DNA from: Candidatus Hermodarchaeota archaeon | Lineage (GTDB): Archaea; Asgardarchaeota; Lokiarchaeia; Sigyniarchaeales; SOKP01 | Reading direction: 5' to 3' | NCBI GenBank assembly: GCA_048885925.1 | Contig: JBHLLG010000082.1 | Location: 1-12,366, forward strand | DNA: 12,366 bases | Shown: piece by piece, positions 1-12,366 of the stretch | How positions within the stretch are numbered: position 1 is the first letter of the stretch | How the letters are laid out: the number at the start of each line of letters is the position of its first letter | The notes under the pieces: generated by a model | Seen by the model: the letters and a program-made list of their open reading frames with translations, nothing else | The model's database searches: none | What the model was told of the DNA's origin: nothing | Made by a program: the position numbers and the translations under genes

Positions 1-371
1 AAAGCAATTCCTATATAAAAAACTCCAGTAATAACTCCAAAAAAAGAGCCACCCATACTAATCTTTTTTGAAGTTCTTGAATTTTTAAAGAACCTCCTAA
101 AAGCAATATAAAAAGGAATTTGAAACAATCCCCAAAAAGAGAGTGCAATTATAAAAATGACAGCAGAAATCGTATTTTCATTACCAGAATGGGCTGAGAT
201 TCGTCCCAAATCACTAAAAAAATTATACCAGAATAAATAACTAGAAGTAGAGGAATCTACATATGTTCCTCCCTTATAAAAAATCATAGCAATTAGAGTT
301 AAAACAATGAATTGGAGAGATCCAATAATCATTAAAATGAAAGCCCAATATTCCCAATTATTTTTATTCAT
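1..371 (-). CDS. DUF998-like multi-pass membrane protein, 3' end runs off the window (not in the ORF track)
   Basis: Read by hand: ATG at 371, open for 123 codons to the edge, MNKNNWEYWAFILMIIGSLQFIVLTLIAMIFYKGGTYVDSSTSSYLFWYNFFSDLGRISAHSGNENTISAVIFIIALSFWGLFQIPF...GSFFGVITGVFYIGIA. It has hydrophobic helices and a Y-x4-N-F-F-S-D-L-G motif resembling the DUF998 N-x-I-S-D-L-G signature. Confidence 0.75.
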   Translation of the reverse strand, partial: MNKNNWEYWAFILMIIGSLQFIVLTLIAMIFYKGGTYVDSSTSSYLFWYNFFSDLGRISAHSGNENTISAVIFIIALSFWGLFQIPFYIAFRRFFKNSRTSKKISMGGSFFGVITGVFYIGIA

Positions 372-393
372 CTTGTATTGACTTATAATCCAG

Positions 394-407
394 ATTTAAA
401 TTTAAAT
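394..407 (-). promoter_or_regulatory. Candidate archaeal TATA box (palindromic ATTTAAATTTAAAT) for the 371 gene
   Basis: TTTAAA core lies about 25-35 bp upstream of the ATG at 371, the spacing expected for a leaderless or short-leader archaeal transcript. The AT-rich background weakens this. Confidence 0.3.
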
Positions 408-497
408 TATCTCAGAATGATGGGTTAAAAACTACAAAATAATTTAATTTTGTAATTTGAGAATGATTTCAGAGTTTTGATATTAAAGATAGAAAAA

Positions 498-1571
498 CTA
501 ATAAAGTTTAGAATGAGATTTAATGTAAATACGATTATTAGTATCAACAATTTGTAAACTTCCCCATGAATCAAATAAAGTTTCGGTTTTTCCTAAAATT
601 AGAATTCCATTCTCAACTAATCTGTCTTCAATAATTTTTAAAAATTTAGCCCTATTTTCTCTATTAAAATAAATTAAAAGATACCTACAAAATATTATAT
701 CATATTTTTGAGGTAATTTATGCCCTTTTGTTACATCTTCTTCTACAAATTCAATTTTATTTTTAATCTCCTCTTTTATTACATTATAGTGCCCAAAATG
801 TGCTTTTTGCTTCATAAAGTATTTATTTTCATAATAATCTGAGATTTCTTTCATCGAATCATTAGTATAAATTCCAATTTTTGCTTTTTCAATTGCTTCG
901 TGAGCAATATCAGAAGCTACAATTTTAAACTTAGGAAATCTTAGAACTTGGGATTCAAGGTTATCTAAAATCATTGCTATTGAGTAAGGTTCTTCACCTG
1001 TAGCACATGGGCATGACCAGATATTTATACAATTATTATCACTTCTGGGGCGTTTCATTTTCCTATAATAAGAGAGTCGGTTTAAAAAGATAAATATATC
1101 TACATAATAGTTTGCTGGTTTTTCAGTTAAATACCTAATTTTGTGTAAATTTTTAACTGCATTAGTCTTCGAACGAAAATTTTCCAATTTTGAAGGATCT
1201 GGTCTTATATTACTTTTTATATCCTTTCTACTTACATTTAAACCTTGTATAAATAAATCTTGAAATGTTTCAAAAACACTATAATCTCTAAAAAAGAACG
1301 TGTAATTTACTGTAAATCCGTCTATAAATTTTTTTATTTCTGATTGATTTAAAGAAACATATTTGTAATATTCATCAAGGGTTTTACAATTAACTCGGAT
1401 CATTCTTGATTTTATTCTTTTCTCAATAAAAGTTCTATTGTAATACCTAAAATTTAATCCTGTCTTTTCTTTTAATAAGGTGATTAAATGGTTGTAAGAA
1501 TCTTCATCTACTTGAATTTGATCAATAATATTTTCCTTGTCAAATTCTGAATCGAAACCAACACGCTTCAA
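498..1571 (-). CDS. cheR: CheR-family protein-glutamate O-methyltransferase-like protein with a ~60 aa insertion
   Basis: N-terminal CheR helical domain (LKEKTGLNF...KRIKSRM), then TVNYTFFFRD, IWSCPCATGEEPYSIAM, IVASDI, YDIIFCRYLLIYF and GILILGKTE, matching CheR motifs in order. TTG start is uncertain. Confidence 0.88.
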   Translation of the reverse strand: MKRVGFDSEFDKENIIDQIQVDEDSYNHLITLLKEKTGLNFRYYNRTFIEKRIKSRMIRVNCKTLDEYYKYVSLNQSEIKKFIDGFTVNYTFFFRDYSVFETFQDLFIQGLNVSRKDIKSNIRPDPSKLENFRSKTNAVKNLHKIRYLTEKPANYYVDIFIFLNRLSYYRKMKRPRSDNNCINIWSCPCATGEEPYSIAMILDNLESQVLRFPKFKIVASDIAHEAIEKAKIGIYTNDSMKEISDYYENKYFMKQKAHFGHYNVIKEEIKNKIEFVEEDVTKGHKLPQKYDIIFCRYLLIYFNRENRAKFLKIIEDRLVENGILILGKTETLFDSWGSLQIVDTNNRIYIKSHSKLY

Positions 1572-1726
1572 TTTCTTATTAATAACTCTTTTAAAACAAA
1601 AAATACTAATTTTACAGTCCCATAATATATTATTTGAATTTATATCTTCTCAAATAGAAAAAGTTAAAAAAAAATAAATGAAAATACATTAAAATTGAAT
1701 AATTTCTATATTGGTTCTTAAATTTT

Positions 1727-2494
1727 TTATTTTTCTAAACTTTCTAATAACTCTCTAATTCTTTTCAATTCATTTAGCCGCAATTCGCTTTTTTCTATAT
1801 TTTTATTTTCTCTTAAATTCTTAGTTATTGTCCCAGCATCAATCGCTCTTATTTTTTCCCATATTGCTGTACGAATAAACTCCGATTGCGTCTGATGAGA
1901 AAGCTTCGCAAATCTTTTAATATCTTTATATTCTTTGCTATTTACCAAAAATTTGACTTGATAATTCTTTTTCAAAGTACTTTGAATAATCATGGGAATT
2001 GCATTCATTAGGTTTTCAATGTTATTTGTTGAAGTTAATTCTATATATCCTAAGAAACCTTCTTTTCTAACAAATTCAAAATATTTTTTCCTATCAATTT
2101 CATTCTCATTCTGAACTAAATCAAGTTTATTTCCAATTAAGAGAACGGGACAATTACTTAGTTTACCCTCATTCCACACTTTTTCAATATAATTTTGATG
2201 ATATTCAAGAGTCTTAGGTTTGGATAAATCGATTATATAAAAAATTGCTGATGCACCTTTATAATATAATGAATGAAGTGATCCAAATTTTTCTTCGTTA
2301 AAAAAATCCCAAAACTGAAGTGTATAATCCTGTCCATCGACATTTACGTGTTTTATAAAAAAATTAACGCCAATTTTGGGTACATTGTCGTGAAAAGGTT
2401 TATCCGCATATTTTTCAATTAGTGTGGTTTTACCGACTCCAGGTGCTCCTAGAACTAAAATTTTAAAAATATCTTTATATTTTACCTTACTCAT
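1727..2494 (-). CDS. Rab-like small GTPase domain (aa ~8-174) fused to a C-terminal ribbon-helix-helix domain (aa ~178-218) and a short amphipathic/coiled-coil tail
   Basis: G1 GAPGVGKT and G4 NKLD, plus RabF-like motifs IGVNF, TLQFW, KFGSL, YYKGA and YIIDLS. The C-terminal YQVKFLV-NSKEYKDIKRFAKLSH-QTQSEFIRTAIWEKI has the beta-helix-helix RHH pattern. Confidence 0.85.
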   Translation of the reverse strand: MSKVKYKDIFKILVLGAPGVGKTTLIEKYADKPFHDNVPKIGVNFFIKHVNVDGQDYTLQFWDFFNEEKFGSLHSLYYKGASAIFYIIDLSKPKTLEYHQNYIEKVWNEGKLSNCPVLLIGNKLDLVQNENEIDRKKYFEFVRKEGFLGYIELTSTNNIENLMNAIPMIIQSTLKKNYQVKFLVNSKEYKDIKRFAKLSHQTQSEFIRTAIWEKIRAIDAGTITKNLRENKNIEKSELRLNELKRIRELLESLEK

Positions 2495-2534
2495 TTTTTA
2501 ATCTACTCATTTTTTTATTTTATGATTATATAAT

Positions 2535-2552
2535 ATGTACCGATCATGTACC
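2535..2552. promoter_or_regulatory. Candidate operator 1: tandem ATGTACC repeats with 11-bp period (GTAC-N7-GTAC)
   Basis: ATGTACC at 2535-2541 and 2546-2552, just downstream (minus strand) of the TATA candidates for the GTPase-RHH gene. Confidence 0.55.
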
Positions 2553-2558
2553 TAATAT

Positions 2559-2583
2559 TATATAAAAAATGATCATATATAAA
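2559..2583 (-). promoter_or_regulatory. Two candidate archaeal TATA boxes (TTTATATA on the minus strand) for the GTPase-RHH gene
   Basis: TATATAAA on + at 2559-2566 and 2576-2583 reads TTTATATA on -, matching the archaeal TATA consensus, 65-90 bp upstream of the ATG at 2494. Confidence 0.45.
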
Positions 2584-2608
2584 TATATGTACTGAAAAAG
2601 TACATATA
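2584..2608. promoter_or_regulatory. Candidate operator 2: perfect 10-bp inverted repeat TATATGTACT-gaaaa-AGTACATATA (GTAC-N7-GTAC)
   Basis: Arms 2584-2593 and 2599-2608 are exact reverse complements. The GTAC cores at 2589 and 2600 are 11 bp apart, and the site abuts the 2576-2583 TATA box at the BRE position. Confidence 0.65.
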
Positions 2609-2638
2609 AAAAAATAATAGGAAAACACTTCTAGCCTT

Positions 2639-2659
2639 AAAAATAGAAATTTTTCTATT
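2639..2659 (-). terminator. Possible weak terminator after hypD (AATAGAAA-tt-TTTCTATT running into a T tract on the minus strand)
   Basis: 8-bp inverted repeat at 2642-2649 / 2652-2659, about 50 bp after the hypD stop. The stem is very AT-rich. Confidence 0.25.
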
Positions 2660-2708
2660 CTTCTGTACTTTAAACCAATTAATAATTGAGGATAATGTAA
2701 AAACTAAT

Positions 2709-5069
2709 TCAAATTGAACTATGTTCTGTTCTTCTTATAATTTCATCTTGTAAATTTGGACCTAAGTTTATGAAGTAATCGCTATATCCAGCAACTCTTA
2801 CAATTAAATCTCGAAATTTTTCTGGATCTCTCTGTGCAGCTCGTAGAGTATCTGCTGAGACAACATTAAATTGGATGTGATGTCCATTCATCTGAAAATA
2901 GGCTCTAATTAAATGAGCCAAGTTTGTAATACCTTCATCACTTGATAGTAAGTGTGGTGTAAATTTTTGATTTAATAATGTTCCGCCTGTTCGCAGATGA
3001 TCAATTTTTGCAGCTGATTTAATAACTGCCGTTGGACCATTGATATCCATTCCTTGAACTGGAGAAATACCTTCTGATAACGGAGTATATGCTTTCCGTC
3101 CATCTGGAGTAGCACCTGTTACTTGACCAAAATAAATATGAACTGTTGTTGGTAATAGATTAATTCGATGCACACCACCTTTAGTATTAGGACGATTATT
3201 AATTGCATTATAAACTATATCAAAAACTTTAGTAGCTAATAAATCGGCATAATCATCGTCATTCCCGTATTTTGGAGTTTTATGAATTAATTTTTGACGT
3301 ATATTTTCATACCCATCAAAATTATTATCTAAAATTTTTACTAACTCTTCCATTGATACAATTTTATTATCAAATATGTTATATTTTAAAGAAGTTAAGC
3401 AGTCTGTAATACTTCCCATACCTACAATTTGAATATATGATGTGTTATATTTCGCTCCTCCATCATTGTAATCCTTCCCATTTTTAATACAATCTTCAAT
3501 TAAAATTGATAAAAATGGAGCTGGATTTTGAGCCCAGATACGTTCTATTATTTGATTTCCTTTAATTTTAATATCTACAAAATGCTTGATTTGCTTAGAA
3601 AAAGCTTCAAAAAATTCATCAAAAGTTTTAAAATTCTTAGGATCTCCTGTTTTTAACCCAATTTGTTTTCCAGTTAACCTATCAATCCCATTATGAAGTG
3701 TGGTTTCAAGAATTTTTACTAAATTAAAATAACCAGTCAAAATATAAGCTTCTTTCCCAAATGCACCACTTTCAACACAACCACTTGCTCCACCATTGCG
3801 TGCATCTACTATAGATTTTCCTTGTCTAGATAATTCTTGAATTATAGCGTCTGTATTAAAAATTGAAGGTTGCCCAAACCCAGTTTTAACTATTTTTAAA
3901 GCCCGTTTTAAAAATTCATCAGGAGTCTTTTTACTAATTTGAACATTACTACTTGGTTGCAAAATCCGCATATCTTCAATTACATCTAAAAGCATATAAG
4001 ACATTTCATTAACGCCATCAGAATCATCTTCTTTCAAACCTCCAATATTAATATTACAAAAATCAGTGTATGTATTACTCTCTTCTGCAGTTACACCAAC
4101 TTTTGGTGGAGCTGGTTGATTATTAAATTTTATCCAAAAAGCTTGAAGTAATTCATATGCTTCTTCCTTCGTTAAAAGACCCTTCGCTAGATCGTTCTTA
4201 TAAAAAGGATATAAATGTTGATCTAAACGGCCAGGATTGAAGGAATCCCAAGTATTATACTCTGTTATAACCCCTAAATGAATGAACCAATAATGTTGAA
4301 GCGCCTCCCAAAATGTCCTCGGTGCGTATGCAGGGACATGGGAACATATTTCTGATATTTTTTCTAACTCCCTTTTTCTAACTGGTTCTAATTCAATAGC
4401 GGCTAAACGTCTAGCTTCCTGAGCATGATGATCTGCAAATTTGATAATCACATTGACACAAATATCCATTGCCATTAGCTGTTCTTTTTTACTGAAAGCA
4501 TCAGGATCATTAAAAAAATCTAAACTCGCTATACTTTCTTTTATTTCTTCTTTAAAATCTAAAAACCCCTTTTTCCATATGTTTTTTCCAGCCACCGTAT
4601 GTCCTGGTGCTCTCTGCTCCATAAATTCTGTAAAAATTCCAGCTTCATATGAATCAATCCATTCAGCATCAACTTTTGAGAAAATTTTATCACGAATAGA
4701 TCTTCCGCTCCAGAAAGGAATTATTATATCTTTAGATTTTTGTCTTGTATCTTCAGATACTTTAAAAGAAATTTTTTCACGAGTATTTAGAATGTCTAAA
4801 TCTTGTAAAGTGTGACAGCATACTTCTGGATACGTAGGAGTTGCTTTTGGTTCTGAACCACGTTCCCCAACGATTAATTCTCCTTCATTAATACAAACTT
4901 CTTTGTTTTCCATCAAATATTTAAATGCTTTTGCTCTAGCAACTGGGGGAGTAAATTTATGGGCAGCACCAGTTTTATAAAATTCTGTCAATAAAAGGGC
5001 ACGTTCTAATGAAAGATAAGGGATTGCCTGTCTACTTTTAGTTCTCAGTTTTTTAATTCTATCATTCAT
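2709..5069 (-). CDS. hypD: Glycyl radical enzyme, trans-4-hydroxy-L-proline dehydratase (HypD/t4LHypD) type
   Basis: Radical Gly motif RVAGYS (G761) and Cys loop SGCVE (C431, E433). HypD-type segments GIFTEFMEQRAPGH (H157), NTWDSF (D275), KFNNQPAPPKVG..ESNTYTDF, LTGY and LLPTT follow my recollection of the Clostridioides difficile HypD sequence closely over the full length. Confidence 0.9.
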   Translation of the reverse strand: MNDRIKKLRTKSRQAIPYLSLERALLLTEFYKTGAAHKFTPPVARAKAFKYLMENKEVCINEGELIVGERGSEPKATPTYPEVCCHTLQDLDILNTREKISFKVSEDTRQKSKDIIIPFWSGRSIRDKIFSKVDAEWIDSYEAGIFTEFMEQRAPGHTVAGKNIWKKGFLDFKEEIKESIASLDFFNDPDAFSKKEQLMAMDICVNVIIKFADHHAQEARRLAAIELEPVRKRELEKISEICSHVPAYAPRTFWEALQHYWFIHLGVITEYNTWDSFNPGRLDQHLYPFYKNDLAKGLLTKEEAYELLQAFWIKFNNQPAPPKVGVTAEESNTYTDFCNINIGGLKEDDSDGVNEMSYMLLDVIEDMRILQPSSNVQISKKTPDEFLKRALKIVKTGFGQPSIFNTDAIIQELSRQGKSIVDARNGGASGCVESGAFGKEAYILTGYFNLVKILETTLHNGIDRLTGKQIGLKTGDPKNFKTFDEFFEAFSKQIKHFVDIKIKGNQIIERIWAQNPAPFLSILIEDCIKNGKDYNDGGAKYNTSYIQIVGMGSITDCLTSLKYNIFDNKIVSMEELVKILDNNFDGYENIRQKLIHKTPKYGNDDDYADLLATKVFDIVYNAINNRPNTKGGVHRINLLPTTVHIYFGQVTGATPDGRKAYTPLSEGISPVQGMDINGPTAVIKSAAKIDHLRTGGTLLNQKFTPHLLSSDEGITNLAHLIRAYFQMNGHHIQFNVVSADTLRAAQRDPEKFRDLIVRVAGYSDYFINLGPNLQDEIIRRTEHSSI

Positions 5070-5231
5070 TTTTTTAAACCTTCTATTGACTTTAATTAGG
5101 ACTATTAATTTAAAAAACTATAACTTTATCTTAATAAATAAAATCATATTCTAAGATATATTTTATCATAAAGATTATAAAAACAAAATGAAACAATCAA
5201 GAAGATAATATAATAAATAGGGACTTATAAC

Positions 5232-6089
5232 ATGAGTATTAAAAAAAAGACTATAGAAGATTATCAAAAAGCTGGGAAAGAAATATTCAAGAAGCTACAT
5301 CTTAATAGCTTCCCAATCTCACTTAAATATATAAAAGATATTGAAAACGAAATCCCTCCAGGTGTTAGAAGACCTATAGAAGATGGAAAAAAGATGTCTA
5401 TTTGCCAGGCTTTTACTTATGCTCGGAGATTTAAGCATAAATTGTGCATAACCGCAGAGGATAATTTTTGTACGCCATCTTCTGTTGCCCACGGATGGGT
5501 TCCTCTTTCGATGGAAGAATTTGTACAGTCTCAAGTGCGCCAAAAATGGACAAAAGATGAAAAAGCAGAAAAACGAAGGGCAGAACACATGTATGCTAGC
5601 AATTTTAAGAATATAATTGATTTAGCATATCGTGGAGTAATTGTTTCTCCATTATCGGAGACTCCAGTCATTCCAGATACTATTATGATTTATTGTGATG
5701 GTCCGAAACTTACTTACATTATACATGCGTTAAACTATGAACATAAGCGTAAATACCGTATACAATCAACATTTGAAGGCTTTGGTGAAAGTTGCGGAAA
5801 GGGAGGATTAATACCATTTATTTCCCGAAAAGCCCAAATAGTCATCCCAGGCACGGGAGATCGCTCATTTGCTGGAATCCAAGATTATGAACTGGGAATT
5901 GGAATGCCTGGAGAATTTATATTTTATGTATTGGAGAATTTATTTCAAACGGGGGCTGGTCAAGGTTTAATGTTTCCACTAAGACAGATAATCCCTAAAT
6001 TGGACGAAAATTTAACCCCCGGTTTCCGTTACATGCGAGAAGTAATCGATAAAAAAATGGAAGAAATGAAAAAACTTGAGCAAAAATAA
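5232..6089 (+). CDS. DUF169 (COG2043-like) family protein
   Basis: FPISLKY, ICQAFTYARR, AEDNFC, ESC and PGTGDRSFAGIQDYEL match the DUF169 pattern, including three conserved Cys. Confidence 0.8.
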   Translation: MSIKKKTIEDYQKAGKEIFKKLHLNSFPISLKYIKDIENEIPPGVRRPIEDGKKMSICQAFTYARRFKHKLCITAEDNFCTPSSVAHGWVPLSMEEFVQSQVRQKWTKDEKAEKRRAEHMYASNFKNIIDLAYRGVIVSPLSETPVIPDTIMIYCDGPKLTYIIHALNYEHKRKYRIQSTFEGFGESCGKGGLIPFISRKAQIVIPGTGDRSFAGIQDYELGIGMPGEFIFYVLENLFQTGAGQGLMFPLRQIIPKLDENLTPGFRYMREVIDKKMEEMKKLEQK

Positions 6090-6131
6090 TATTTTTCAAT
6101 TTATAAAAAAAAATTTAAATGTGGTTTTAAT

Positions 6132-7244
6132 ATGGCAAGTATAGATTCTTATATAAAACTAATAGAACATTTCCGGGAATGGATATTTGGTTTACCAGAT
6201 GGTGATGAATTATTACCACTACTTAAATGGCGAATTACTCCTGAAGAAGCAGAATTGCTATCGAGATTGCCCTTTTTAACCCATACTCCTGCACAGCTTT
6301 CAAAAAGGTTAAATATCCCTGCTGATGAACTTAAAGAAAGATTGGAAACTTTTTCTAAGAAAGGTCTAGTTTTTCGCGTAGAAGGAAGCAGTACCATAAG
6401 GTATTCCATGGTAGACTCGAGTTGGCTTTTTCGAACTTGGGGATGGTTGGGCAAAAATGATGAAGAGGCGAAAAAAATGACCCCAATTTTAAATAAATAT
6501 TATGAAGACCATTATGGTGCTGAATATCTTGGATACCCGACGATTGGTTTACGAGCAGTTCCTATTAATGAAACTGTTGATGATCCTCGCCAAATAATGC
6601 CTTATGAAGATATCTTAAAACTAGTTGATAAAGCAAGATATTATACTAAAACTGCTTGTCCTTGCAAACATCTACACAATCAGGATGATAAATATGAAAA
6701 TTGTAAGAATGATTTGCATGTTTGCCTACATTTTGATAGGCTTGGCGAGTATATCGTACAGAATAATTTAGGTACAGAAATTACTAGGAAAGAAATATTG
6801 GAGATATTAACAAAATCTGCGGATGCGGGCATGGTTCATGGAGTTTCAAATTCTAAAGATGGAATCGACACAATCTGCAACTGCTGCAAGTGTTGTTGTA
6901 TGTACTTGAATGGTTTAATTAAGATGGAAGGAGCTCCTCGAGGACATATACCCTCAAACTATTTAAGAGAAATAAATAATGATAAGTGTATTGGGTGCGG
7001 TGTATGTGCAAAATTATGTCCTATGGATGCAATTGAAGTTGTTGATAAAAAAGTATCTTTCACTCCTGATAAATGTATAGGATGCGGTGTTTGTGTTCAT
7101 AAATGTCCCCAGAAAGCCTTATATTTAGTTCATCGAAAAGAGGATCAAGATTATCCAGCTAATCCGAGAGAATTTGCTGTTAGAATGCTTTCTGAAAGAG
7201 GTCATGATCCAATGAAAAGTATGATAAAAAATAATTGGCGTTAA
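6132..7244 (+). CDS. Cys-rich 4Fe-4S dicluster protein with an N-terminal HTH-like region and a CNCCxCCC domain
   Basis: Two CxxCxxCxxxCP motifs (DKCIGCGVCAKLCP, DKCIGCGVCVHKCP), a central CPC..C..C and ICNCCKCCC, and an N-terminal TPEEAELL...LSKRLNIPADELKERLETFSKKGLV wHTH-like pattern. It lies 42 bp after DUF169, probably in the same operon. Confidence 0.85.
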   Translation: MASIDSYIKLIEHFREWIFGLPDGDELLPLLKWRITPEEAELLSRLPFLTHTPAQLSKRLNIPADELKERLETFSKKGLVFRVEGSSTIRYSMVDSSWLFRTWGWLGKNDEEAKKMTPILNKYYEDHYGAEYLGYPTIGLRAVPINETVDDPRQIMPYEDILKLVDKARYYTKTACPCKHLHNQDDKYENCKNDLHVCLHFDRLGEYIVQNNLGTEITRKEILEILTKSADAGMVHGVSNSKDGIDTICNCCKCCCMYLNGLIKMEGAPRGHIPSNYLREINNDKCIGCGVCAKLCPMDAIEVVDKKVSFTPDKCIGCGVCVHKCPQKALYLVHRKEDQDYPANPREFAVRMLSERGHDPMKSMIKNNWR

Positions 7245-7353
7245 AATCAATATTGATTAATAGAATATAAGAAAAAGTAAGGAATTTAAATATAATCAAT
7301 TGGAAAAAATCTCCACAGTTTCTGTCAAACTAATCATCTAATTTATATATAAA

Positions 7354-9045
7354 TTATCCGCTTTTCTCCTTTTCTGCTTTTTTAGCTTCTTTATCTCTAA
7401 TTACACGCCTTAGAACTTTTCCAACAGCACTTTTTGGTAAAGAACGAACAAACTTTACTGTTCTTGGATATTTATATGCTGCCATATTTTGCTTAGACCA
7501 TTCAATTATCTCTTGTTCTGTGATTTTTCCTTTATATTCACTTTTAAGAATGATATGTGCCATAATATTTTCCCCTCTTTCTGGATCTTTAATGCCAAAT
7601 ACAGCACATTCTTGAATTGCTGGGTGTTCATATAAAACTTCCTCAATTTCTCTTGGATAAACGCTATGACCTTTATATTTTATCATATCTTTTACCCGGT
7701 CGATTAAAAAAATATAACCCTCTTCATCCATCTTTGCATAATCCCCTGTTCTTAGCCATCTATGACCCCCAGCTTCAAAAAACACCTTTTCATTCTCTTC
7801 AGGTCTATTGTGATATCCCATCATAACCTGTGGACCTGCTACAACTAATTCTCCAGGTTCACCAATCGGTAAGAAATTAAAATTTTCATCAATTGTCCCA
7901 CATAAAGTACTGGCAATAGGAACACCGCAACTTCCGAGCTTCTTTTTAGCCCAAGGAGGACTATTTGTAACAACTGGACTTGTTTCACTGAGTCCATAAC
8001 CTTCACCTAACGGAAATCCTGTCTTTTTTTCCCATTCTTTGGCAATCTCGATTGGCATTGCTGATGCTCCTACATTTGCATACTTAAGGCAAGAAAAGTC
8101 TACCTCCTTACTTAATGGAGAATTCAATAAATTAATAAACATAGTTGGCACTCCTAGCATGGTATTTGGTTTTTTTTCTTTAATTGTTTCAATAATCCGA
8201 GGAATATCAAATGTAGGAAATATGAATCCTTTTCCTCCTGTAAATGGACCTTGTACAAGTTCACATGTTTGTCCATAAATATGATACCATGGAAGAATAC
8301 ATATATCTTTTAGATCTCCCTTGATGTAAACTTCCTTTGCATAATCTGATAGTTGTTTTATTTGTAATATATTTGCGAGAATATTATAATGAGACAAGCA
8401 AGCTCCTTTAGGATCCCCTGTTGTACCACCAGTATATTGAATAACTGCGATATCTTCTTTAGGATTGACATTTACATTGAAATCTATAAGTGATTCTGGA
8501 TTTTCCTCTAATATTGTATTGAAATGTATAATCTTGGCGCTTTCAGGTACATCTGGAACTTCGCCAGCAACATTAACAATTATAACTTTCTCCAATGAAA
8601 GTTGATCTTCTAGTCTTTCAAATTCTTTTATGAACCTATCGATCATAATTAAATATTTTGCACCAGAGTCTTTAATTTGGTAGGCCATTTCTCGTCCTAC
8701 AAATAGAGGGCTAATAGCAGTTAATGTTGCTCCAAGACCTAAGGTAGCAAAATAACAAATACTAAAATGAGGACAATTCGGTAACCATAATGATACCACA
8801 TCTCCCTTCTTTAAACCTAATTTCAGAAGCCCATTTGCAAATCTTCTTGTTAAGTTATCCATCTCTTTGAATGTAAACTCTCTACCAAAATAGTCTAAAG
8901 CTATTTTATCCTTATAGTCTTTAGCACCTTTTTCAAATAAATTAATTAAAGATTGATAATCTTCTGGAATATCGATTTCTAACGTCATTCCGTCTGGTAA
9001 GTGATCTTTCCAAATTCTATTTTTTATATAATCTGGTAGTTCCAT
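7354..9045 (-). CDS. fadD: Long-chain fatty-acid--CoA ligase (AMP-forming, FadD-like)
   Basis: QYTGGTTGDPKG P-loop, GEGYGLSETSP, WLRTGD, DRVKDMIKYKG..VYPREIEE and LPKSAVGKVLRR. Substrate chain length cannot be determined from sequence. Confidence 0.88.
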   Translation of the reverse strand: MELPDYIKNRIWKDHLPDGMTLEIDIPEDYQSLINLFEKGAKDYKDKIALDYFGREFTFKEMDNLTRRFANGLLKLGLKKGDVVSLWLPNCPHFSICYFATLGLGATLTAISPLFVGREMAYQIKDSGAKYLIMIDRFIKEFERLEDQLSLEKVIIVNVAGEVPDVPESAKIIHFNTILEENPESLIDFNVNVNPKEDIAVIQYTGGTTGDPKGACLSHYNILANILQIKQLSDYAKEVYIKGDLKDICILPWYHIYGQTCELVQGPFTGGKGFIFPTFDIPRIIETIKEKKPNTMLGVPTMFINLLNSPLSKEVDFSCLKYANVGASAMPIEIAKEWEKKTGFPLGEGYGLSETSPVVTNSPPWAKKKLGSCGVPIASTLCGTIDENFNFLPIGEPGELVVAGPQVMMGYHNRPEENEKVFFEAGGHRWLRTGDYAKMDEEGYIFLIDRVKDMIKYKGHSVYPREIEEVLYEHPAIQECAVFGIKDPERGENIMAHIILKSEYKGKITEQEIIEWSKQNMAAYKYPRTVKFVRSLPKSAVGKVLRRVIRDKEAKKAEKEKSG

Positions 9046-9219
9046 AATTAAAACCCCTTTTAAAATATTAATTTATTAATGAATTTAATATTAACTTTAA
9101 AATTTTTATTTCTTCAAATCTTAGAATTAACTTTACAAATCATTTTTTAATGATTTAGAATTATAAAATCAAGAATCTCTGAAAAACTCAAAAAATTAAT
9201 TCTAATATAAAATTATAGG

Positions 9220-10842
9220 TTGATGATTTTGAAATTGCAAAATGAATTAGGTGTTCCAGTTCCTGCAAATAAACCCTTAGTAATGAGAACTATAAAACAT
9301 GTAACAAAAGAACAACGCGAATATGCACTTGAGAAAACAGAATATAATATGTTTTCCTTTCCAGCTGACTTATTGTTTGTAGATTTCTTATCAGACTCTG
9401 GCTCTGGTACAATGACTGATTTTCAATGGGCTGCATTATTTCATGGAGATGAATCCTATGCCAGGAATAAAGGATATTATGTTCTCTTGGATGCAATCAG
9501 GGACACATTCGAGAGAGGTAATAGTCCAAAACGAACGATTAATTTAATTCTTTCGGGAGAAACAAATATAGATAAACTAATGGATGAGCTTTATCTAACT
9601 TCATATAAAGGTGGTTTTGTAAATGGAGGCGTTCACCAGTTGACCCGTCCAAACGCGTTCATAGTTCCACAAGGCAGATGTGCAGAATATCTCCTTTTCT
9701 CAACTATATCCCCTATTTTAAAACAAAATAATCCTGATACAAATTATTATATCCCAAATAATGGGCATTTTGACACAACTGAAGCAAATATTGCTGCTAA
9801 TGGTATCATCCCCATAAATTTATATTCAGCAAATTTATTAGATGATTTTCTTTATAGTGAGATGGATAATTATAATCCCTTTAAGGGTAATATGGACGTA
9901 GTTAGATTAGAACAGCTAATCCAAGAGAAAGGGGTGGATTCAATCCCACTAATTTATATTACGATTACTAATAACACTGCCGCAGGACAACCTGTTGCTA
10001 TGAGTAACATTAAATCAGTTCACAAAATTGCAGAAAAATATGGGATTCCTTTATTTTTCGATGCGTGCAGATTTGCTGAAAATGCTCACTTTATTCAAGA
10101 ATTTGAAGACGGATTTCAAAATCGTACTATCCCAAAGATTGTTCAGGAAATGTTTTCATATGTAGATGGATTCACAATAAGCTTCAAAAAAGATGGTCTT
10201 GCTAATATGGGCGGCGGTTTGTTCTTTAGGGATAAAGGTTTGTTCCATGAAAAGTTCTCTATAGAAGAAGATATTGGAATTCGATTGAAAGAAAAGCAGA
10301 TATTAACATTTGGAAATGATTCCTATGGTGGAATGTCTGGAAGAGATATTATGGCACTAGCAGCAGGATTATATGAAATTATACAGGAAAATTATTTGAA
10401 TGAGCGAAAGACGCAAATTAGAGAATTTGCGAGGAAACTGGCTCAAAATGGTATTCCTGTTATTCTTCCCGCAGGGGGGCATGCAGTTTATCTAAACATG
10501 GATAAATTTTTTGAAGGTACCGATATGAAAATAGAAGATTTTGGAGGAGTAGGATTTACTATAGAACTCTTAAGACATTATGGCATACGCGCATGCGAAT
10601 TAGGACCATTTGCCTTTGAATGGGATAAAAAAGCTCCTGAACAACGGAAAGGAATACTGAATTTAGTTCGTTTTGCGGTTCCAAGGAATATGTATGGAAC
10701 AACTCATATCGATTACACTATAGCTGCCATAACCGAACTCTATAAGAATAAAGATAAAATACCAAAAGTGAAGATTTCTCGAGGAGCTGAATTACGATTA
10801 CGACACTTTCAAACAGGACTTCAACCAATTTATAGAAAGTAA
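9220..10842 (+). CDS. tnaA: Tryptophanase (tryptophan indole-lyase), PLP beta-eliminating lyase, long form
   Basis: DFLSDSG, GDESYA, QGRCAE, FKGNMD, TNNTAAGQPV, DACRFAENA, SFKKD (PLP Lys324) and YGGMSGRD. FDTT, LRHF and GIRACELG (no Arg at the TPL R381 position) favour tryptophanase over tyrosine phenol-lyase. The start may be ATG 9223. Confidence 0.85.
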   Translation: MMILKLQNELGVPVPANKPLVMRTIKHVTKEQREYALEKTEYNMFSFPADLLFVDFLSDSGSGTMTDFQWAALFHGDESYARNKGYYVLLDAIRDTFERGNSPKRTINLILSGETNIDKLMDELYLTSYKGGFVNGGVHQLTRPNAFIVPQGRCAEYLLFSTISPILKQNNPDTNYYIPNNGHFDTTEANIAANGIIPINLYSANLLDDFLYSEMDNYNPFKGNMDVVRLEQLIQEKGVDSIPLIYITITNNTAAGQPVAMSNIKSVHKIAEKYGIPLFFDACRFAENAHFIQEFEDGFQNRTIPKIVQEMFSYVDGFTISFKKDGLANMGGGLFFRDKGLFHEKFSIEEDIGIRLKEKQILTFGNDSYGGMSGRDIMALAAGLYEIIQENYLNERKTQIREFARKLAQNGIPVILPAGGHAVYLNMDKFFEGTDMKIEDFGGVGFTIELLRHYGIRACELGPFAFEWDKKAPEQRKGILNLVRFAVPRNMYGTTHIDYTIAAITELYKNKDKIPKVKISRGAELRLRHFQTGLQPIYRK

Positions 10843-10970
10843 AACATTTTTTATAAAAATAATATAATAATTTAAAATCAGAGTTGACAGAGTGTAACCT
10901 ATTGATTTAACTACAACCAAATTACTTCATTTTAAATTAAAAAATTATAGAAAATTGAAATAAAAAAAAT

Positions 10971-11282
10971 CTAAATATCTAACATTCGTAATTTTTGCGA
11001 AATATCCTTTCTTCTGAGGATTTTCATGAAATCGTCTTTTTTCTGCTGAAGGCGAGTTAGAAATGAATCAAGTTTATCAAAATTATTAAAGAAATACTCA
11101 TTATTCTCAACCATGATTTTCACTCCCTTCCTATCGTTTTGAAGAATTGCATAAATTCCTCCCACTTCCAAATCATGCTTTATAAATACTTTCTCTGCAT
11201 TAGGATACTTCTCATTTCCTTTTTTTGCCCAAAAGTTATTTTTTAACAAATAAGATCGATACATACTCATACTTCCACACAC
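10971..11282 (-). CDS. Small hypothetical protein (~97-103 aa)
   Basis: Non-overlapping ORF with plausible composition and a GAGG element at 11285-11288. The true start may be ATG 11270. No family recognised. Confidence 0.6.
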   Translation of the reverse strand: MCGSMSMYRSYLLKNNFWAKKGNEKYPNAEKVFIKHDLEVGGIYAILQNDRKGVKIMVENNEYFFNNFDKLDSFLTRLQQKKDDFMKILRRKDISQKLRMLDI

Positions 11283-11699
11283 AACCTCTTTTTGCTAATG
11301 ATGATAAGTCATCGAGATATACCTAATAATATACTCGTTATGACCATCAACATGTAGTTCCTAGTAATATAAAATTCAAATTAATTATATTATCGTGTAA
11401 TATCCAAGGAACATATCACCGAGATATTATATAACTTTAATTCTATACTACCCAAGAAACATAGTCACTAAAAGCCCTTATAAATCATAAAGTAAAAAGC
11501 CCAGAACTATTTACTATAAAAAATTTACTTGGGGTTAAACACAAAAAATTTCAAGTGCATATTTACAAGTATTTTTCATTTATTCTTTTATAACATCATC
11601 AAACTACTTCATAAGTTTTTCTTAACATCATACGCTGCTTTCCCACCTTTATCTTTCAAAACAAGACATAATTTAATGTAGGTTTATTCATAATCCTTA

Positions 11700-11742
11700 G
11701 CATGATTTTTAGTTCTAATTATTATTTGATGAAAAATCATGC
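11700..11742. repeat. Perfect 11-bp inverted repeat GCATGATTTTT-N21-AAAAATCATGC
   Basis: Arms 11700-11710 and 11732-11742 are exact reverse complements. Confidence 0.7.
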
Positions 11743-11814
11743 AAAAATTGCGATTATCTTTAAGAATAATTAATAATAATCTACTTATATTTTATCTAAA
11801 AATAAATAAAATTC

Positions 11815-12363
11815 GTGAAAATAATGAAAGTTAGTAAAATTCTAATTCTTTTAGGTGCTCTGATAACCCTTTTTTCCACATTTTTCTTATCTTTTGCTCA
11901 AACAAATGGTCTTGATGGGCGTACCTATGCTTCAGGTATTGGATTTCTATTTAATCTTCCAAGTATAATAAGCGATGTATCATACTGGGAAGCATTTAAC
12001 GGTGGAGAAGTAGGGGTAATATACATTGTTTCAATTGTTTTTATCGTTTTCTTACTTGCTGGAATAATACAATTAGTAGGACTAATAAATAAATATGTTG
12101 CATTGATTGGCTCAATCATAGTAATTGGTGTAAGCATCGCAATTATATTAGCAATTACGGTTAATATTTCAGGTTGGGATATGAGTGTTTACTCAACTTT
12201 GCTTTGGTCAACACCTATTGCAGATGGTATTTGGCCCCTCGACGTACCTGTGGTGGAAACATCTGGTCTTTTTTATCAGAATCTTTCCTTAGGGACTATC
12301 ACCTTAATAATTGGTGGTGGTTTGGGTTTTACCGGAGGAATACTAAATTTTAAGGATTTATAA
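11815..12363 (+). CDS. Hypothetical four-TM membrane protein
   Basis: Four hydrophobic segments (aa ~9-28, 66-91, 96-117, 158-177) and a Gly-rich last helix GTITLIIGGGLGFTGG. The start is probably ATG 11824. Confidence 0.8.
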   Translation: MKIMKVSKILILLGALITLFSTFFLSFAQTNGLDGRTYASGIGFLFNLPSIISDVSYWEAFNGGEVGVIYIVSIVFIVFLLAGIIQLVGLINKYVALIGSIIVIGVSIAIILAITVNISGWDMSVYSTLLWSTPIADGIWPLDVPVVETSGLFYQNLSLGTITLIIGGGLGFTGGILNFKDL

Positions 12364-12366
12364 ATT

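Follow-up and report, generated by a model that had tools for sequence, protein, structure and literature searches.

What does a Rab-like small GTPase domain do when it is joined to a domain that would bind DNA? The question is raised by a gene for a protein of 255 amino acids (aa) on contig JBHLLG010000082.1 of Candidatus Hermodarchaeota archaeon (assembly GCA_048885925.1), of which positions 1 to 12,366 were analysed and are referred to below as the window. A first-pass annotation had described the product as a Rab-like domain fused to a ribbon-helix-helix (RHH) domain, and had proposed a regulator in which the G domain controls DNA binding. Here, the observation was confirmed and the interpretation partly supported. 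The reading we favour, and consider reasonably probable, is that of a dimeric and probably higher-order RHH protein that regulates its own promoter and carries a non-canonical Rab-like domain as its input. Domain identities, motif loss, dimer geometry and the conservation and co-occurrence of a promoter element were all shown in silico. The gene was divided as follows.

1727-2494, minus strand: fusion gene for a Rab-like G domain and an RHH domain, an open reading frame (ORF) of 255 aa with the stop codon at 1727-1729.
1979-2464, minus strand: Ras-superfamily G domain, aa 11-172 (PF00071, E 5.3e-27), with P-loop, NKxD and G5 Ser kept and switch-I Thr, DxxG Gly and catalytic Gln replaced.
1844-1966, minus strand: RHH domain, aa ~177-217, with a beta strand at 179-184, helix A at about 186-198 and helix B at about 203-217.
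1787-1843, minus strand: variable linker, aa 218-236, with low conservation in the alignment and low model confidence (predicted local distance difference test, pLDDT, <50 for 219-247).
1730-1786, minus strand: amphipathic C-terminal helix, aa 237-255, of the LRLxELKxIRELLExLE type, conserved and also present in RHH proteins with leucine-rich repeats (LRR).

Both domain assignments made earlier were borne out, the N-terminal domain having Rabs as its nearest relatives and the strand-helix-helix unit agreeing with the ~1841-1963 given in the first-pass annotation, with the amphipathic tail following it.

A search of 5.8 billion proteins returned 78 matches to the 255-aa protein, 59 of which (P0002-P0060) are 239-321 aa long, with E <= 1e-66 and 76-100% of the query covered. 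The query and 42 of these 59 homologues were aligned (n=43; P0011, P0016, P0031, P0045 and P0048-P0060 were omitted). The best-conserved part of this family alignment is the C-terminal strand-helix-helix block, and Q179, K181, F182, L183, S204, F206, I207, R208 and I211 are identical in all 43 sequences. In one relative of 317 aa both domains are present with ~60 additional residues between them. The domain junction, near nt 1969, is spanned by contigs from three other studies (X5 record 6, covering 1845-2800; X6 record 11, covering 1688-2184; X8 record 17, covering 1935-2084). Because 59 near-full-length homologues and bridging contigs from three other studies exist, an assembly chimera is excluded, and the fusion on which the earlier reading depended is genuine and conserved. 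A word-based search for longer fusions of the RHH module (448-2000 aa) found none, which is weak evidence by that method, and a region-restricted search for the module at near lengths returned GTPase fusions only. A frame split was seen in L023 (1-545; record titled Odinarchaeota), where the RHH is out of frame with the G domain and the shift sits at an A run directly before the RHH strand; this could be a homopolymer sequencing error or a real split gene.

The identity of the C-terminal part was assessed by profiles and by structure. When the last 85 aa were searched alone, as the first-pass annotation had proposed, the Pfam families NikA-like (27.0 bits, cut-off 27), DUF6290 (25.8 bits, just under its cut-off of 27) and RHH_1 (14.6 bits, cut-off 20.5) came up at or below their cut-offs, and NCBIfam gave RelB_antitoxin (24.9 bits, cut-off 50) and aCcr1 (16.4 bits); all five we take to be RHH families by clan. 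At E <= 0.01, NikA-like and DUF6290 each matched 36 of the 43 full-length members and RHH_1 matched seven; among 21 isolated modules the counts were 20, 19 and 6, respectively. The best E of the RHH profiles across members was 2.8e-8. An AlphaFold model of the isolated module (pLDDT 81.5) consists of an extended segment followed by two helices, and Foldseek returned 135 matches to it in the PDB, those listed being mostly RHH DNA-binding proteins (probability up to 0.99, root-mean-square deviation 1-2 A), including MazE6, KacA, AtaR, TacA, ORF56, CopG, Arc, AmrZ, NikA and PutA. In the ESM Atlas the named neighbours were all RHH families (feature score 0.81, which serves as a lead only; structure template-modelling score 0.51-0.64). 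That the C-terminal part is an RHH is supported by the Pfam matches, the mostly RHH fold matches and the dimer model.

This dimer model, of aa 172-255 as a homodimer, agrees with the intertwined RHH dimer that had been predicted. Three runs reached interface scores (ipSAE, interaction prediction score from aligned errors) of 0.44, 0.44 and 0.46 against 0.00 for the best control, with at least 86% of contacts shared between runs and a partner pLDDT of at least 70; of proteins solved as pairs, 20 of 30 reach the pass mark used, and of those solved as single chains one of 23 does. The contacts (181:181, 182:180 and 183:179, and helix B on helix B) describe an antiparallel ribbon centred on K181. 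Since RHH dimers have already been solved, the pass is to be taken as likeness to an RHH-type intertwined dimer rather than as proof. In Arc, the residues corresponding to Q179, K181 and L183 face the DNA, and by analogy these three would do so here. S204, invariant like Q179 and K181, stands where helix B begins.

If the ribbon reads DNA, what would it read? Upstream of the gene lies the following arrangement.

2589-2603, no strand assigned: candidate operator site 1, GTAC-N7-GTAC, abutting the TATA-like box on its upstream side.
2576-2583, minus strand: TATA-like box, TTTATATA here and TTTATAAA in most loci, between both sites; a promoter role is suggested by its position and conservation.
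2537-2551, no strand assigned: candidate operator site 2, GTAC-N7-GTAC, at a distance of 52 bp from site 1; the start codon follows about 42 nt downstream, and the expected transcription start is near.

GTAC-N7-GTAC occurs exactly twice in the window (chance expectation 0.01; none of 200 shuffles reached two), and no extra site appeared in the window when one mismatch was allowed. When the upstream intergenic DNA of 15 loci was aligned, a block of 77 columns stood out with 83% pairwise identity, compared with 54% upstream and 62% downstream of it. Within this block the order is site 1, the TTTATAAA-type box and site 2, and none of the four GTAC cores varies among the 15 loci. The cores inside each site are 11 bp apart. 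The starts of the two sites are 52 bp apart in 13 loci, 53 bp in four, 54 bp in two and 49, 50 and 58 bp in one each, a spacing of ~ five helical turns. A repeat search in four intergenic regions found only AT-rich pairs of low identity, no hairpin terminator was found, and a sigma-70 promoter scan gave 17 matches where chance predicts 16.9, its model not being applicable to archaea.

The pattern is present in 23 of 26 loci (two copies in 22 of them), and every copy in these 23 is located upstream of the RHH gene. It is kept where another gene intervenes before the glycyl radical enzyme gene that usually lies upstream (L006, L010, L016 and L017), where a different large gene stands upstream instead (L008 and L022) and in both loci in which the module is attached to LRR (L024 and L025). 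Three loci lack it: in L002, which belongs to the window's own genome, the RHH is divergent and stands alone; the sequence of L023 includes no upstream DNA; and the LRR-RHH gene of L026 is decayed, a stop codon and a frameshift interrupting it. The stand-alone RHH (G000:C152; L002 332-736) is a second one of this type in that genome, 134 aa long with a long Glu/Lys-rich tail, and no GTAC-N7-GTAC occurs in the 2.1 kb examined around it.

Co-occurrence of element and module was then scored in 61 genomes from the GTDB family. Seven of them contain the composite double pattern, and a reversed-pattern control was found in one; the RHH module was found at E <= 1e-8 in 18. Six genomes (G000, G049, G150, G177, G192 and G065) combine a strong module match, a frame of 253-323 aa and available upstream DNA, and each of these six has exactly one double site, on the same contig and roughly 550-820 nt from the RHH-coding segment. 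The double sites lie on the deduced 5' side of the gene, the gene start itself being read directly in the window's genome. In G220 the module is at a contig edge with no upstream sequence. The seventh pattern match, in G216, is GC-rich and without a TATA-like box, and the RHH of that genome is on another contig; we take this match as chance. None of the 43 family genomes without the module has the double pattern. In the window's whole genome the double site occurs once. The conserved 4xGTAC element at the gene's own promoter makes DNA binding by the module, as judged from sequence, much more concrete than it could be in the first-pass annotation.

How widely the module occurs was assessed in 201 genomes of the phylum, evenly drawn, at E <= 1e-12. 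It was found in 15, all of one GTDB family (14 of 40 members and the window's own genome), and in none of the 160 genomes of 26 other families sampled. Because it is confined to one family in this sample, it is treated as a lineage-specific invention, not finding it elsewhere being no proof of absence; a general link, Asgard-wide or related to eukaryotes, is not upheld by this distribution. The record titles of the loci name Promethearchaeota, Hodarchaeota, Thorarchaeota and Odinarchaeota. An exhaustive profile search of 1.84 billion representative proteins gave only 74 matches at E <= 1e-3 and 26 at E <= 1e-10; ten of these were scanned, and four carried LRR, one a Ras domain, one a weak Fapy-like N-terminus and four RHH-type families only. 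In the 160-aa representative P0088 the module is preceded by 40 residues that match formamidopyrimidine-DNA glycosylase at its N-terminus (27.6 bits, cut-off 25.5); this could be a fragment or another kind of fusion.

The strongest alternative to the autoregulation reading is that the GTAC element is bound by a different factor or is plain core promoter, and that the RHH-like part dimerises, binds a partner or binds DNA elsewhere. A promoter element and its gene are expected to travel together regardless of the binder, the sequence and fold support for the RHH is consistent and individually weak, and no second target is visible in the genome, all of which suits this alternative. Arc, CopG and Mnt bind as paired RHH dimers on half-sites ~one helical turn apart. 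Four palindromic 4-bp cores, arranged in two pairs with 11 bp spacing, form the geometry expected for such dimer pairs, and the ribbon residues Q179 and K181 are invariant alongside the invariant cores. Moreover, where the N-terminal domain has been swapped, the RHH, the tail and the operator are all retained. On balance, we regard this alternative as unlikely.

The N-terminal domain was compared with known GTPases in the same way. Roc and Arf profiles of Pfam also match it (Roc with 74.3 bits). The nearest solved sequences are Rab7 (the best, E 5.1e-23), Rab2B, Rab32 and Ypt1 (range 5e-23 to 4e-21), and the nearest folds to the AlphaFold model of the full-length protein (mean pLDDT 72.6) are Rab10, Rab8, Rab1 and Rab11 (Foldseek, E about 1e-14). 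Five RabF-like motifs had been reported; against the RabF consensus as we assume it to be, three of them (IGVNF, LQFW and YYKGA) match and the other two are partial. The protein ends in a Glu/Leu/Lys-rich helix without Cys, and so lacks the prenylatable Cys of eukaryotic Rabs.

The nucleotide-binding motifs are largely intact in the family. The P-loop residues G16, G21 and K22 are found in all 43 sequences, with T (39) or S (two) at position 23; in NKxD, N122 is kept in 39, K123 in 35 and D125 in 41; and S155, the G5 Ser, is invariant. Since P-loop, NKxD and G5 Ser are intact, guanine-nucleotide binding by the G domain is plausible. The residues that sense the gamma-phosphate and the catalytic Gln are another matter, their replacement having been overlooked in the first-pass annotation. 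Alignment to Rab7 and Rab2B places K40 at the switch-I Thr position, where T occurs in one of the 43 and K in 35, and DFFNEE at the position of the Rab DTAGQE (G3), which reads DFFNEE or DIIDxx across the family. The G3 Asp, D63, is kept in 39 of 43; the DxxG Gly is kept in one, with D, N or A elsewhere, and the catalytic Gln in none. The six nearest unfused relatives (29-36% identical) retain TIGxEF-type and DxxGQ-type motifs (DxxGQ or DxxGM), so that the loss, as read from the alignment, is specific to the fused family.

These observations bear on the earlier proposal that a Rab-type domain, cycled by hydrolysis or by GTPase-activating proteins (GAP) and exchange factors (GEF), turns DNA binding on and off as a one-component GTP/GDP switch. 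The intact P-loop, NKxD and G5 Ser, which make nucleotide binding plausible, the Rab-like fold and the conserved fusion to the RHH all favour it. Against it stands the near-complete absence of the switch-I Thr, the DxxG Gly and the Gln from a family whose nearest unfused relatives keep them. In addition, at the locus L024 an LRR protein of 429 aa with the same C-terminal module fills the slot between the radical enzyme and a CheR-type methyltransferase, so that LRR, which is no nucleotide binder, replaces the G domain at the same locus of another genome and behind the same operator. No GAP- or GEF-like gene (roadblock, longin, DENN or TBC) lies in the conserved neighbourhood. Because the gamma-phosphate sensors and the Gln are gone family-wide and LRR can stand in for the domain, a canonical spring-loaded GTP/GDP switch with hydrolysis appears unlikely, and we regard such a switch as the means of controlling DNA binding as quite improbable.

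The two LRR-RHH relatives were examined alongside. The second, of 450 aa (L025), lies in an unrelated neighbourhood, and in both the tail helix is conserved. In L024 (4744-5006) a small ORF of ~58 codons comes after the operator and a Shine-Dalgarno-like GAGGT, and this ORF overlaps the LRR-RHH start. L026 (5700-6240), from the same metagenome-assembled genome as L024, has a short N-terminal remnant, a stop codon, the RHH and a tail in another frame.

Several results weigh against autoregulation by the fusion protein and are gathered here. The Pfam RHH scores of this protein lie at or just below the gathering cut-offs, the Foldseek E-values for the module are all weak (0.078 or more, none <= 0.001), and no relative of the module was found in the PDB by sequence or profile, where the only match was a chance coiled coil (E 0.6). 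The dimer may have passed because solved RHH dimers were already familiar to the prediction model. One of the four cores is altered in L011, which for this reason has one copy of the pattern only, and in G040 and G180 the module matches are weaker (frames of 353 and 362 aa) and the strict double pattern is missing. Because a promoter element would accompany its gene no matter which protein binds there, co-occurrence is not proof that the fusion protein is the binder. Single GTAC-N7-GTAC sites are not enriched in the window's genome (13 places, 17 for the control), and a regulon beyond the gene itself is not visible there. Finally, coupling between the domains gains no support from the full-length AlphaFold model, because neither a contact between G domain and RHH nor packing of the tail on the G domain is confident in it.

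With these points weighed, autoregulation remains our preferred account, and it would work as follows. Each RHH dimer would insert its two-stranded ribbon, with Q179, K181 and L183 outward as in Arc, into one palindromic GTAC core, so that two dimers one helical turn apart would occupy each GTAC-N7-GTAC site. Separated by about five turns, these sites bracket the TATA-like box. Occupancy should block initiation, because site 1 abuts this box and site 2 is near the expected transcription start; access of TBP/TFB or of RNA polymerase would be prevented and the gene repressed. The conserved C-terminal helix may link dimers into higher oligomers, a function that such a helical region has in Mnt, where a C-terminal tetramerisation region follows the RHH. 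The N-terminal Rab-like domain, which probably still binds a guanine nucleotide, would be the input module, acting through nucleotide occupancy or a protein partner; these are favoured over a GTP/GDP cycle because the domain is interchangeable with LRR and lacks the switch residues. What we infer from these patterns is that the protein binds DNA and nucleotide, that it represses, how it oligomerises and what kind of signal it receives. In this genome the element is found at no promoter but the gene's own, so that the protein looks like a local autoregulator rather than a broad transcription factor. A bolder version, which we put forward only tentatively and think rather doubtful, makes the Ras-superfamily domain, without its switch residues, a direct sensor: its occupancy by a guanine nucleotide or alarmone, or its capture by a protein partner, tunes cooperative RHH assembly on the 4xGTAC operator.

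The genes around the fusion gene were traced in 24 loci, taken from a scan with one genome per species, by tblastn of the window proteins. Its two neighbours are the following.

2709-5069, minus strand: glycyl radical enzyme, upstream of the fusion gene, matching the trans-4-hydroxy-L-proline dehydratase model (NCBIfam 1311.8 bits, cut-off 1100).
498-1571, minus strand: CheR-type methyltransferase, 357 aa, downstream of the fusion gene, with Pfam and NCBIfam matches.

The glycyl radical enzyme lies upstream in 19 of the 24 loci and is 78-85% identical across them. It belongs to a conserved cluster of three genes, the other two being an acyl-CoA ligase and a tryptophanase-like lyase at 7354-9045 (minus strand) and 9220-10842 (plus strand), found in 11 and 13 of the 24 loci, respectively; identity across loci is 77-86% for the cluster, compared with 40-72% for the regulator. 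No activase gene is adjacent, and three activase-like genes (290-323 bits, cut-off 425) lie on other contigs. A literature search found no paper on a hydroxyproline dehydratase in connection with Asgard archaea. The CheR gene has two Pfam domains split by about 100 unmatched residues, and no other chemotaxis gene is present in the window.

A T9 run is found at 1666-1674, about 55 nt past the stop codon of the fusion gene, and a gap of 155 nt separates the fusion gene from CheR. The run is a possible oligo-T terminator and, together with the gap, suggests that the fusion gene is transcribed alone. Contigs from other runs vary in length at 1665-1668.

Proximity to CheR invites a further explanation, namely an antitoxin-like module whose RHH and tail neutralise a neighbour such as CheR, with autoregulation as a secondary trait. 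The best fold and family matches are indeed to antitoxins, namely MazE6, KacA, AtaR, TacA, DUF6290 and RelB, a conserved tail follows the RHH, and CheR is found downstream as a substantial match in nine of the 24 loci and as a short remnant in two more. However, the RelB_antitoxin score is about half its cut-off, no toxin family occurs among the neighbours (the adjoining genes being the glycyl radical enzyme and CheR), and PADLOC reported nothing meaningful on the window (a P-loop match of 13.8 bits and a methyltransferase match of 26 bits only). CheR is missing downstream in many loci, its identity of 76-80% across loci is unlike that of fast-evolving toxins, and the T9 run and the gap stand between it and the fusion gene. 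An antitoxin role therefore seems very improbable. A centromere-binding protein of the ParG/omega kind, with the RHH on repeats and the G domain driving DNA movement or bridging, is hardly credible: RHH adaptors of type Ib partition systems bind repeats upstream of their own operon and a nucleotide-binding domain is attached here, but there are only four half-sites, at a single-copy chromosomal locus in a metabolic gene cluster, no ParA-like partner is present, and we know of no Ras-like domain that forms partition filaments. A Roco protein was also considered in view of the Roc profile match and rejected, as no COR family was among the matches listed (best 25 of 29 families for the full-length protein) and the RHH follows directly after the G domain.

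The DUF169 and ferredoxin genes of the window were found in none of the 24 loci. Between ligase and radical enzyme, at 5232-7244 (plus strand) and in this window only, lie this DUF169 gene and a gene whose product has a weak, sub-threshold N-terminal match to TrmB-like winged helices and two 4Fe-4S motifs. At 10971-11282 (minus strand) an ORF of 103 aa has no significant Pfam match (best E 0.037) and is probably a real conserved small gene, because it is 86-91% identical in three related loci (L004, L019 and L020).

Set beside known systems, the proposed autoregulator resembles Mnt, Arc and CopG in its beta-alpha-alpha fold, its intertwined dimer and its dimer pairs on half-sites ~one turn apart, all of them predicted here, and CopG and Arc are among the fold matches of the module. 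It differs in that those are small stand-alone proteins, whereas a Rab-like domain of 170 aa precedes the RHH in this one. NikR and PutA are precedents for a larger, autoregulating protein that contacts DNA through an RHH, the PutA RHH being another of the fold matches. In both of those, however, the RHH comes first and is joined to a domain that binds metal or acts as an enzyme, whereas in the fusion protein it sits at the C-terminus behind a Ras-superfamily domain or, in relatives, behind LRR. AtaR, KacA, TacA and MazE6 give the best fold matches, likewise have a C-terminal extension after the RHH and, as antitoxins, autoregulate; the fusion protein differs from them in having no toxin partner, an antitoxin model below cut-off and an N-terminal G domain. 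RGK and Rnd proteins are non-canonical small GTPases that bind nucleotide, lack canonical switch or catalytic residues and serve mainly as interaction modules. They are eukaryotic, membrane-associated and without a DNA-binding domain, and the similarity is of kind only.

Among the Asgard Rab-like GTPases described in the available portions of PMC10933270 and PMC4915359 (Thor-Rab), the Rab-like core without C-terminal prenylation cysteines is shared; those proteins have a single domain or carry a roadblock or longin domain in addition, and their switch residues are intact, whereas here the residues are lost and an RHH is gained. The GTPase fusions with roadblock and longin domains are given in PMC10933270, as far as that paper was accessible, and its Fig. 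1f has a '?' class of undefined domains in MK-D1 GTPases; these '?' architectures could include a Ras/Rab-RHH fusion. Such a fusion is not mentioned in the available portions of 10.1101/2020.10.19.343400, PMC4316618, PMC4915359 and PMC11529989. The earlier statement that no Ras/Rab-RHH fusion had been characterised agrees with our full-text literature searches, which found none described, supplementary architecture tables being outside their scope.

RHH autoregulators are known as a kind; what would be new is a Rab-like input domain without switch residues. As far as the searches show, this would be the first Ras-superfamily input domain of a one-component DNA-binding regulator. The finding is limited to one GTDB family among those sampled, and the regulon appears to consist of a single promoter. 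Few predictions are so easily put to the test, since a 110-bp fragment with four defined 4-bp cores and a domain of 85 aa suffice for a binding assay. Roco proteins have two N-terminal building blocks, LRR and Roc-like G domains; if the bolder version is true, Roco-type signalling modules would be wired directly to DNA in these Asgard archaea, and some 'eukaryotic signature' Rab-like genes would be unrelated to membrane traffic. Asgard Rab-like GTPases are usually taken as hints of eukaryote-like membrane trafficking. Because a conserved subfamily is attached to a predicted DNA-binding domain and a sharply defined operator-like element, counts of 'Rab-like' genes would overstate trafficking capacity.

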